A stretch of 64,000 nucleotides of DNA from Promethearchaeota archaeon (GTDB lineage: Archaea > Asgardarchaeota > Hermodarchaeia > Hermodarchaeales > Hermodarchaeaceae): positions 256,001-320,000 of the forward strand of contig JBHLMG010000001.1 in NCBI GenBank assembly GCA_048938385.1. The letters run 5' to 3'. Made by a program: the position numbers and the translations under genes. The stretch's first letter is position 1, and each line of letters opens with the position of its first letter. Positions 4,270 to 45,820 of this stretch are shown one piece after another. The notes under the pieces were generated by a model. That model made no database searches. It was given only the letters and a program-made list of their open reading frames with translations, and was not told where the DNA came from.

Positions 4270-5754
4270 CTAATGCTGTAGTGCTGTTGTAAGGAACTCT
4301 ACCAGTTTGCTAATTTTAACAAGCTGTTCGTCACCGCTTTTCATGTCACGGATCTTAACTGCGTTCTCTTCCAATTCTCGGGGTCCAATGATGGCTGCAA
4401 GTGGAATCTGTCGTTTACTTGCATCTTCTAGATGTTTAGTCAGTGACCATGAAAATCCGTTGAAAATCGTCCGGATTTTGGATGTTCGCAGCTGAGTTGC
4501 GATATCTCGACAAGCTGTTAATTGCTTCTTGGACACCGGAGCTAAGTAGACATCAGCTTGTGGAACCGGTGGTGGAAATAACTTTTTTTCCTCTGCAATT
4601 TCTAAAATTACGGTTTCACCAAAACCAAATCCTGTCCCAGGTAGTCGCTGTCCCCCAAATATTCCCACGAGATCATCATAGCGACCACCTCCGGCAATTG
4701 CCCTGGGTATCCCTTTTCCTTGATCCCATGCCTCGAAAACGATGCCTGTGTAGTAATCGAGACCCCGAGCAATTCCTGCATCGAATTCGCAACAATCCTC
4801 AATACCCAATTCTTCTAATTGTTTGGCTAGTTGTTTCAAAGGTACAAGATTTTTCTTAGTAGACTCATCAAGAGCAGGTTTGTTCATGGCTTCAAGGAAC
4901 TCTCTTGGCGTTCCCCGAATGCCTGAGAAATCAACGAGCTGTTCAGCTGCTTGCTTAGGAACCTTCAACTTCTTCAGTCTAGTAATTAGCGCTTCACGCT
5001 GAAGTTCTGGAAGCGAGGTCTTTAACTCTTCGACTTGCCTTGAACGAGGAAGTTTGAGATCTACTTGTTGTTTTCCAGCATAGAAATGCCGAAGTTTCAA
5101 CGCCCTGTCTTCTGCCTTCTTCCGTGGCATACCATCCTTTGTGAGTTTATCGATAATGGCTTCTTGTAAGAGTTTTTCGCGCTGATCCAAGACGCGAATG
5201 ATTTCGATGTAGTTGGTCAGTCCGAGTGATTCGATATAACTTTGGATTAAGCGACGGTCATTAATTCGAATTACAAAGTCTTTCACTGTGAAACCAAGGC
5301 TCAGGATGATAGCAGCTAATACATTAATGACTTCAGCATCTGCGGCAACATCTTCTGTTCCTAAGATATCGACATTCAATTGCCAAAATTCCTTGACGCG
5401 ACCTCGTTGAAGGGTCTCATCCCGGAAAACCCGTGAAATTGAAAACCATCGAATGGGGCGTGGGTAATATTGCTGCTGCGCGGACAGCATACGTGCAAGA
5501 GAGGGTGTTGTTTCAGGACGAAGAACAAGCTGTCGTTTCTTTCGATCAGTCACTTTGAAGGTTTCATCTACTAGCGAAGGTCCTGATTTAAGCTGATACA
5601 GTTCTATTGGCTCGACAATCGGGCACTCGTATTCGATGTAACCAAATAGCTTGGGAATTTCACGAAAGGCTTGAAGTATCCGATCAACCTTTTGATAGAG
5701 TTCTGGATAATAATCTCGGAATCCACCAATCGCCAGTTCTTTCCCGCGTTTCAT
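4270..5754 (-). CDS. hisS: Histidine--tRNA ligase (start moved to ATG 5754; the longer ORF runs into the tRNA)
   Basis: GGFRDYYP, LRPETT, FRDE..QRGR..EFWQ, RGLDYYTG, GGGRYD and an anticodon-binding domain. Confidence 0.97.
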   Translation of the reverse strand: MKRGKELAIGGFRDYYPELYQKVDRILQAFREIPKLFGYIEYECPIVEPIELYQLKSGPSLVDETFKVTDRKKRQLVLRPETTPSLARMLSAQQQYYPRPIRWFSISRVFRDETLQRGRVKEFWQLNVDILGTEDVAADAEVINVLAAIILSLGFTVKDFVIRINDRRLIQSYIESLGLTNYIEIIRVLDQREKLLQEAIIDKLTKDGMPRKKAEDRALKLRHFYAGKQQVDLKLPRSRQVEELKTSLPELQREALITRLKKLKVPKQAAEQLVDFSGIRGTPREFLEAMNKPALDESTKKNLVPLKQLAKQLEELGIEDCCEFDAGIARGLDYYTGIVFEAWDQGKGIPRAIAGGGRYDDLVGIFGGQRLPGTGFGFGETVILEIAEEKKLFPPPVPQADVYLAPVSKKQLTACRDIATQLRTSKIRTIFNGFSWSLTKHLEDASKRQIPLAAIIGPRELEENAVKIRDMKSGDEQLVKISKLVEFLTTALQH

Positions 5755-5806
5755 CGTTGTCAACTCGCCAGCCAATCTCGTAAATATCCACATTGACATT
5801 GAAAAA

Positions 5807-5962
5807 TGGTGCCGGGACAGGGATTCGAACCCCGACCTAAAGCTTTCCGTATCCCAATTACAATGGGATTCCACAGGCTTCAATGCTGCCATTGCGCCTG
5901 GGCGTACATTACCAGTTTACACCATCGGGAGCCAATCAATTCTTGATCGGCCTTATCCCGGC
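5807..5962 (-). tRNA. tRNA-His(GUG) with three introns (5924-5954 at 8/9; 5892-5916 at 15/16; 5845-5870 at 37/38), CCA encoded
   Basis: Acceptor GCCGGGA/TCCCGGC, T-arm CGGGG-TTCGAAT-CCCTG, anticodon arm GAAGC-CTGTGGA-GCTTT; each intron has a 3-4-3 BHB motif; spliced product is 74 nt. Confidence 0.92.
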
Positions 5963-6144
5963 ACGGTGACCCGGCACGAGGGATTGTTGAGACGAACTCT
6001 TCCACAAAAACCTTTCCTATCTTTCCCTTCAAGTCAACCGTTGTAGGACTTTCTAGTACGGTGCTTGTTGCTGCTGAGGTGGGTGAAAACAGCGAAGCGG
6101 GTTCTGCTTCATCGATATTGAAACGATGACCCTGTCAGGCAAGG

Positions 6145-45696: not shown

Positions 45697-45820
45697 AGCC
45701 CGGTAGTGTAGGTTCCTACAAAAGGGGGCACAGTGGTCAATCATCCGAGGCTCTGGATTCGCGCTGGTGACGCGAAGGAGATACCTTGGGACCGCGGTTC
45801 GAATCCGCGCCGGGCTACCA
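45697..45820 (+). tRNA. tRNA-Gln(CUG) with two introns (45712-45733 at 15/16; 45757-45782 at 37/38), CCA encoded
   Basis: AGCCCGG/CCGGGCT acceptor (A1-U72), T-arm CGCGG-TTCGAAT-CCGCG, BHB helices GTGT/GCAC and CTCT/GGAG. Confidence 0.93.

Follow-up and report, generated by a model that had tools for sequence, protein, structure and literature searches.

A copy of the 5' acceptor strand in the leader of an archaeal tRNA-His gene as a candidate stand-in during splicing of an intron at position 8/9

INTRODUCTION

The tRNA-His(GUG) gene described here, found in a stretch of 64,000 nucleotides from an archaeon of the Hermodarchaeaceae (hereafter the window), raises the question of how a tRNA intron between positions 8 and 9 can be removed. 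Such introns create a structural conflict: four bases are claimed both by the acceptor stem and by the signal for cutting. Archaea are known to have non-canonical and multiple tRNA introns, including one at position 3/4 in Thermoproteales, and Asgard archaea have heavy tRNA intron loads and a broad-specificity heterotetrameric endonuclease (PMC4090602, PMC11291895, PMC5829648). Several introns per gene and introns within the D-arm are likewise known in Asgard archaea. In the bulge-helix-bulge (BHB) motif that marks these introns, the 5' bulge is preceded by four exon bases and the 3' bulge by four intron bases, and these two sets pair with each other (bioRxiv 10.64898/2026.10.13.758758). A preliminary description of the locus drew attention to a second copy of the 5' acceptor strand in the leader of the gene, and proposed that this copy occupies the 3' strand and so leaves the real 5' strand free for splicing.

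RESULTS

A tRNA-His gene interrupted at three positions

The gene lies on the minus strand and is interrupted at positions 8/9, 15/16 and 37/38, with all pieces collinear in 156 nt (Table 1). ARAGORN called no tRNAs in the 64-kb window and Rfam gave no matches at the gathering threshold; the best Rfam signal at this locus is a weak 17.9 bits to the tRNA model. Because the standard finders miss the gene, it was parsed by hand, and the exon/intron layout was resolved by alignment with 12 orthologues of the same genus and four from a second genus. Spliced in silico, it gives a product of 74 nt that ARAGORN identifies as tRNA-His(gtg). Exon 1 does not vary in any of the 18 orthologues that carry the first intron (diversity 0.00), and the segment TCCCGGCACCA of exon 4 is unchanged in every orthologue. 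A split or trans-spliced tRNA was considered and rejected, as the whole tRNA is encoded contiguously behind one promoter-like box.

Table 1. Features of the tRNA-His locus in the window, and the two leucine tRNA genes of the same genome that carry an 8/9 intron
Feature	Position	Strand	Remarks
Promoter-like box GGAAAGGTTTTTGTG (BRE/TATA-like)	6003..6017	-	Present in 21/21 orthologues; putative promoter
Leader (distal) copy CGTGCCGGG	5970..5978	-	Last 8 bases GTGCCGGG complementary to positions 67-74
Spacer TCAC between the copies	5966..5969	-	CAC and the next C can pair with GGUG of exon 2 start
tRNA-His(GUG) gene	5807..5962	-	5962 is G1; 5807 is the end of the encoded CCA
Exon 1, positions 1-8, GCCGGGAT	5955..5962	-	Real 5' acceptor strand and U8
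Intron 1 (31 nt), at 8/9	5924..5954	-	Inner hairpin and BHB motif
Exon 2, positions 9-15, GGTGTAA	5917..5923	-	
Intron 2 (25 nt), at 15/16	5892..5916	-	Central helix GUGU:GCGC, inner helix CUGG:CCAG, outer helix absent
Exon 3, positions 16-37	5871..5891	-	Includes anticodon GTG
Intron 3 (26 nt), canonical 37/38	5845..5870	-	Central helix CUGU:ACGG
Exon 4, positions 38-76	5807..5844	-	CCA encoded; 3' acceptor strand, A73 and C74 at 5809-5817
T5 run	5802..5806	-	Directly after CCA; likely archaeal oligo-T terminator
Histidyl-tRNA synthetase gene (hisS)	4270..5754	-	Begins 52 nt past tRNA-His, same strand
Leu(UAA)	G000:C23:187437-187546	-	23-nt 8/9 intron; leader extends locus to 187587
Leu(CAA)	~G000:C46:10185-10373	-	Several introns including 8/9; locus with leader to 10415

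The boundaries of intron 1 are fixed by three genes of genus g2 that lack it, in which GCCGGGAT is followed directly by GGTGT. Excision of the intron yields a valid tRNA with a junction equal to that of these intron-less orthologues. For the D-arm, alternative exon assignments in which either the first or the second D-like segment is wholly intronic lost to the 15/16 split, which is preferred because it provides a perfect central and inner helix, explains the GCGC and GCAC variants of the intron, and reproduces an intron-less D-arm. The resulting arm (GTGT-AATGGCA-GCAT) is identical to that of the intron-less tRNA-His of an unrelated archaeon found by a pattern scan (L099), and differs from that of another tRNA-His (L109) solely by a T for C in the loop. 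Intron 2 was found in all 21 orthologues, two of which have GCAC in place of GCGC with the pairing to GUGU intact. It is the constant intron of this gene; introns 1 and 3 are variable, the latter being missing from three orthologues. Introns at 15/16 also recur in several other tRNA genes of the genome, their central helix being formed with the 5' strand of the D-stem (positions 10-13).

The T5 run, kept as TTTTT in genus g1, is likely where transcription terminates. The hisS gene adjoins the tRNA gene in 17 of the 18 orthologous loci with sufficient flank. The discriminator is A73 and the base at -1 is T, in place of the canonical prokaryotic encoded G-1:C73, and the 89.8%-complete genome gave no matches to Thg1 (PF04446), the eukaryote-like enzyme that adds G-1.

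The splicing motif of intron 1 uses the acceptor strand

The central helix of intron 1 is formed by C3-G6 (CGGG, 5960-5957) with intron bases CCCG (5929-5926), which agrees with the preliminary description in borrowing nucleotides 3-6 of the acceptor strand. This pairing is found in 16 of 18 orthologues; one of the others has CCUG, giving one G-U pair, and one has ACCG, which retains three of the four pairs. The diversity of the intron CCCG is 0.056. The rest of the intron-1 hairpin differs in sequence in nearly all orthologues with its pairing retained. The intron follows the BHB rule given above: exon bases -6 to -3 and intron bases -6 to -3 make up its 4-bp central helix. Its two bulges read A7-U8^A and A-U^G9 in the window gene, and A7-U8^A/U and A-N^G9 across the orthologues, some of which have a 5' bulge of 4 nt. 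With its 4-bp central helix, two 3-nt bulges and strong inner helix, intron 1 resembles the non-canonical BHB introns as defined by Marck and Grosjean (2003).

Of the flanking helices, for which at least 2 pairs are expected, the strict outer one is weak, consisting of C2-G10 and three G-U pairs. In folding, the alternative to this outer helix is a helix between the spacer and exon 2, which abolishes the 3' bulge. Judged from these models, intron 1 may be described as a relaxed HBh'-type motif. Folds constrained to the strict motif lie 2.5-8 kcal/mol above the minimum free energy (MFE) in five orthologues; this cost probably reflects a limit of the energy model and is not counted as evidence. 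The genome has an RNase P RNA and two genes of the splicing-endonuclease family (G000:C23:325049-325303 and 190407-190667), and cleavage of intron 1 itself is predicted. Since the motif and the acceptor stem both use positions 3-6, the two must compete.

A second acceptor strand in the leader

The sequence CGTGCCGGG matches exactly two sites in the window, both on the minus strand (5978-5970 and 5965-5957), against a chance expectation of 0.15 per window. The two copies and the TCAC between them had been noticed beforehand and are confirmed here. The proximal copy corresponds to tRNA-His positions -3 to +6, combining bases of exon 1 with 5963-5965. The distal copy ends in eight bases, GTGCCGGG (5977-5970), that can form Watson-Crick pairs throughout with tRNA positions 67-74, CCCGGCAC (5816-5809), which is the 8-bp pairing to the 3' strand proposed for the leader. 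The distal copy was also considered as the true exon 1 and rejected, as its positions 7 and 8 are variable, with C in most cases at position 8 instead of U, and the inner helix is not adjacent to it.

Conservation and co-occurrence with intron 1

The comparison is based on 21 distinct tRNA-His orthologues, including those on metagenome contigs. Searches at the level of the order and of the class yielded the same 19 genomes, and there is consequently no outgroup tRNA-His within the class. All 18 genes with the 8/9 intron have the leader copy, and all three without intron 1 have a single copy, so the co-occurrence that the preliminary description had asked about is complete in this set (0/3 duplicates in genes lacking the intron). 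In each of the 18, the leader copy can form eight contiguous pairs with positions 67-74. Pairwise diversity is 0.06 in the leader copy, compared with 0.33 in the adjoining upstream leader, 0.51 in the intron-1 hairpin and 0.35 in the trailer. Four sequences have U for C3, the sole substitution seen in the copy, and this change preserves a G-U pair with the 3' strand; one orthologue's copy is a G short in its run, at position 6 or later. The bases that would face A73 and C74, GU at -2/-1, do not vary in the leader copy but do in the proximal copy. Pairing with the 3' strand accounts for this pattern better than pairing with the intron would, and the sequence comparison indicates that the leader copy is under purifying selection. 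The 3' acceptor strand itself never varies, and two-sided covariation is therefore absent for the proposed helix.

In a HisRS tree, the intron-bearing metagenome lineage L117 is sister to genus g2, within which the branching is not settled. This placement suggests that intron 1 and the leader copy are ancestral and were lost together one to three times; a joint loss probably occurred at least once inside g2.

These data also bear on the possibility that the copy is an evolutionary by-product, left by a tandem duplication of the 5' end or by insertion of a new exon 1 and intron, and that it is tolerated and unneeded for splicing. Such an origin would agree with the promoter spacing, as the distance to the leader copy is the same as that to the single copy of intron-less orthologues and the copy would thus occupy the ancestral 5' end. 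In L039, moreover, the leader copy still reads GCCGGGAT, as in exon 1. However, a neutral relic should decay, and the 8-mer is intact across lineages whose HisRS proteins are only ~65% identical, while neighbouring positions in the leader, the intron loop and the trailer are near saturation. The conserved block also coincides with the limits of complementarity to positions 67-74. A target-site duplication was rejected, because the repeats bracket the 4-nt spacer alone and the intron lies downstream of both. We therefore regard an unneeded by-product as unlikely.

Promoter spacing and predicted transcription of the copy

All 21 orthologues align without gaps between the promoter-like box and the first acceptor copy, which places the leader copy where intron-less genes have their 5' end. 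Within the box, AAAGGTTTTT begins 40 nt upstream of the G1 of the leader copy. The boxes of other tRNA genes in the genome start 38-42 nt upstream of their own G1, and the match between these distances predicts a start approximately 5 nt upstream of the leader copy. Transcription thus appears to begin upstream of the copy, which would then be part of the primary transcript.

Were the start instead to lie between the copies, the distal copy would be untranscribed and might act at the level of DNA, for example as an initiator or as a protein-binding repeat controlling tRNA-His and hisS. The position of the tRNA gene directly upstream of hisS makes regulation of this kind conceivable. However, the box precedes the copy by 40 nt, as it precedes G1 by 38-42 nt in other tRNA genes, a second and nearer TATA-like box was not found, and such an 8-mer is not shared by other tRNA promoters. 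The restriction of substitutions in the copy to C-to-U likewise suits pairing in RNA. A role confined to DNA is accordingly very improbable, and a transcribed copy is assumed in what follows.

Four RNA runs gave contigs of relatives over 5701-5926 alone, with no splice joints and no ends, and with the leader uncovered. Metatranscriptome contigs of related organisms from wetland and sediment studies extend from exon 2 to the trailer (5785-5926) and retain introns 2 and 3. They could represent either unspliced precursor or DNA carry-over.

Folding of the precursor

Folding the precursor with and without its leader gave the difference that the preliminary description had anticipated. When the leader is absent, the 3' strand is occupied by the real strand with a probability of 0.76-1.00, and the central helix of intron 1 has a probability of 0-0.23. 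When it is present, the leader copy takes the 3' strand (0.81-1.00), and of 17 orthologues 14 reach 0.63-0.99 for the central helix; in the other three the motif is not formed in the model despite the leader. The mean probability of the central helix is 0.07 with the leader absent versus 0.76 with it present. The RNAalifold consensus agrees with this structure.

The leader as a whole is therefore predicted to free the real strand for the 8/9 motif. However, this effect can be assigned to the copy only in part: when the copy is scrambled or complemented, the mean probability of the central helix is still 0.43-0.46, so other leader sequence must contribute. In these models the spacer is the likely source of the residual effect. 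At the border of the intron and exon 2, the MFE structure has CACCGU paired with AUGGUG, and three positions of the spacer read CAC in 15 orthologues, UAC in one and CGC in two, all of which are capable of pairing with GUG. The leader thus seems to have two modules, the copy and the spacer.

The partial dependence on the copy is compatible with a third alternative, in which the leader copy does pair with the 3' strand but for some other purpose. The pairing could provide an acceptor/T minihelix for early RNase P, 3'-processing or modification enzymes; it could guard the 3' end from exonucleases while three intron motifs unfold the body of the precursor; or it could bar RNase P from the true site independently of intron-1 recognition. 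Each is compatible with the same conservation and complementarity data, and the predicted helix of the leader copy stacks on an intact T arm. There is also a bacterial precedent, in that RNase P is reported to be hindered when a 5' leader pairs with the 3' RCCA (PMC9433436). However, none of these purposes explains why the copy is restricted to genes with 8/9 introns, given that genes with two or three other introns and equally unfolded D-arms have no copy. The copy is also gone along with intron 1 in g2, though intron 2 stayed. A purpose apart from intron 1 thus seems to us a minor possibility, and a copy that serves removal of the 8/9 intron accounts better for this distribution.

The models also indicate a difficulty for that function. 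With the introns removed in silico, the leader copy is still preferred on the 3' strand (~0.9), and the best fold in which the real strand is paired is 1-8 kcal/mol worse after splicing in these two-dimensional models. As the copy is favoured even after splicing, a strand exchange must be assumed.

Other tRNA genes of the genome

A survey of the genome covered 37 tRNA genes, in which positions 1-48 were inspected directly. Enumeration of motif-bounded introns combined with an ARAGORN test of the product proved too permissive for annotating these genes. Only three of the 37 have an intron before position 15, namely His, Leu(UAA) and Leu(CAA); in all three it lies at 8/9, and in all three its central helix takes positions 3-6. 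In these three genes, and in no others, the gene's own acceptor strand is duplicated in the leader; the remaining 34 have neither feature. Among 32 other tRNA genes with a leader, none has a complement of its own 3' strand longer than 6 contiguous bases; there are two complements of 6 bases, both where a neighbouring tRNA gene overlaps the leader.

In the two leucine genes the leader copy is GCGGGGG, located 40-41 nt upstream, and the promoter is spaced to this upstream copy. In Leu(CAA), GTGCGGGGG lies 40 nt upstream of exon 1, and was present in all 16 orthologues inspected, which represent both genera. Both leucine copies are kept in every recovered orthologue of the two genera, and leucine genes of other Asgard families have neither the 8/9 intron nor the leader copy. 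As the two leucine genes are paralogous, with the same layout and acceptor sequence, they and tRNA-His represent about two independent origins rather than three.

The leucine leaders are more complex than that of tRNA-His. Their bases -10 to -3 are paired to the D-loop region of exon 2, where the two genera differ by one compensatory change; the Leu(UAA) leader has an 8-bp complement, GACUAAGC, to that region. In addition, G5-G7 of the Leu(UAA) leader copy fall within a hairpin of the leader for which there are two compensatory pairs, and this hairpin competes with the proposed pairing. With leader bases tied up in the hairpin and D-loop pairing, the spare strand of the leucine genes is not simply free. 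The Leu(UAA) leader also resembles a worn tandem copy of exon 1 and its intron, a likeness that would suit the by-product origin discussed above.

Two further tRNA genes were noted. One is a second interrupted gene in the window itself (45697-45820, plus strand), with a precursor of 124 nt, that was missed by both ARAGORN and Rfam. It has the acceptor AGCCCGG/CCGGGCT, A73 and an encoded CCA, and lacks a leader copy; the best parse is a tRNA-Gln(CUG) with introns at 15/16 and 37/38. The other is tRNA-Met(CAU) (G000:C23:189154-189274, plus strand), where a hairpin in a T-loop intron, GTCCTCGGGAC, resembles the 3' acceptor strand, CCCTCGGCAC, and was placed by Infernal as the acceptor. A stand-in on the 3' side was considered for this gene and set aside, since the likeness is explained by the intron's own hairpin. 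It is probably a coincidence.

DISCUSSION

A proposed stand-in for the 5' acceptor strand

The comparison of orthologues and the folding models are best explained if the leader copy stands in, in cis, for the 5' acceptor strand, a reading to which we assign a probability of about 0.6. Transcription would begin a few bases upstream of 5978. In the primary transcript the leader GUGCCGGG would pair with CCCGGCAC (positions 67-74) and so occupy the 3' acceptor strand, and the real positions 3-6 could remain on the intron CCCG as the 4-bp central helix of the 8/9 intron. The short spacer may assist through base pairs with the start of exon 2. The splicing endonuclease would then cut after U8 and before G9, and the exons would be ligated. 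The real strand, now freed, would displace the stand-in from the 3' strand, and RNase P would cut off the leader together with the stand-in. Tertiary folding of the finished tRNA's body might aid the exchange of strands, as might an initial cut by RNase P at the stand-in helix. The sequences, their complementarity and conservation, and their co-occurrence with 8/9 introns are observed; transcription of the copy, its pairing in the cell, the order of these steps and the exchange are inferred from the comparison and the folding models.

In a broader formulation, stand-in strands are a general and so far undescribed class of cis-acting pre-tRNA element in intron-rich archaea. They would occur wherever a splicing motif borrows acceptor bases, would hold the 3' end and so make the intron spliceable, would force splicing to precede RNase P, and would be gained and lost with their intron as a pair. 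This generalization is tentative, and we rate its chances at slightly less than even.

Relation to known systems

The use of flanking, non-tRNA sequence as a structural partner that is later discarded has parallels in the split tRNAs of Nanoarchaeum equitans and Caldivirga and in permuted tRNAs, where pairing of leader and trailer builds the splicing motif (PMC4090602, PMC3218864). However, in contrast to split tRNAs, this tRNA-His would be made as one transcript from one promoter, and its leader copy is proposed to occupy the strand that would destroy the motif rather than to form the motif. The bacterial pre-tRNAs in which leader pairing with the 3' RCCA inhibits RNase P (PMC9433436) are similar in that pairing between leader and 3' end affects the timing of RNase P, as is proposed here. 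They differ in that the true acceptor stem is extended by a few pairs, whereas in tRNA-His a complete second 5' strand would replace the true one and is tied to an intron. Papers on BHB introns (PMC4090602, PMC11291895, bioRxiv 10.64898/2026.10.13.758758) do not mention a leader element that replaces an acceptor strand; the last of these contains neither 'leader' nor 'Hermod', and groups insertions in the acceptor region as 'other'. In the open-access literature, we found no report of an acceptor-invading intron that is coupled to a copy of the acceptor strand in the leader.

Implications

If the proposed function is correct, the stand-in strand explains how introns at 8/9 can exist, and predicts an obligatory order in which splicing comes before 5' maturation. 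The same design would explain why tRNA finders miss such genes, and it offers a signature for annotation, consisting of a promoter, a spare strand, the real strand and an intron. The locus would then be a small and testable case, from the archaeal group closest to eukaryotes, of an RNA acting as chaperone for its own processing.
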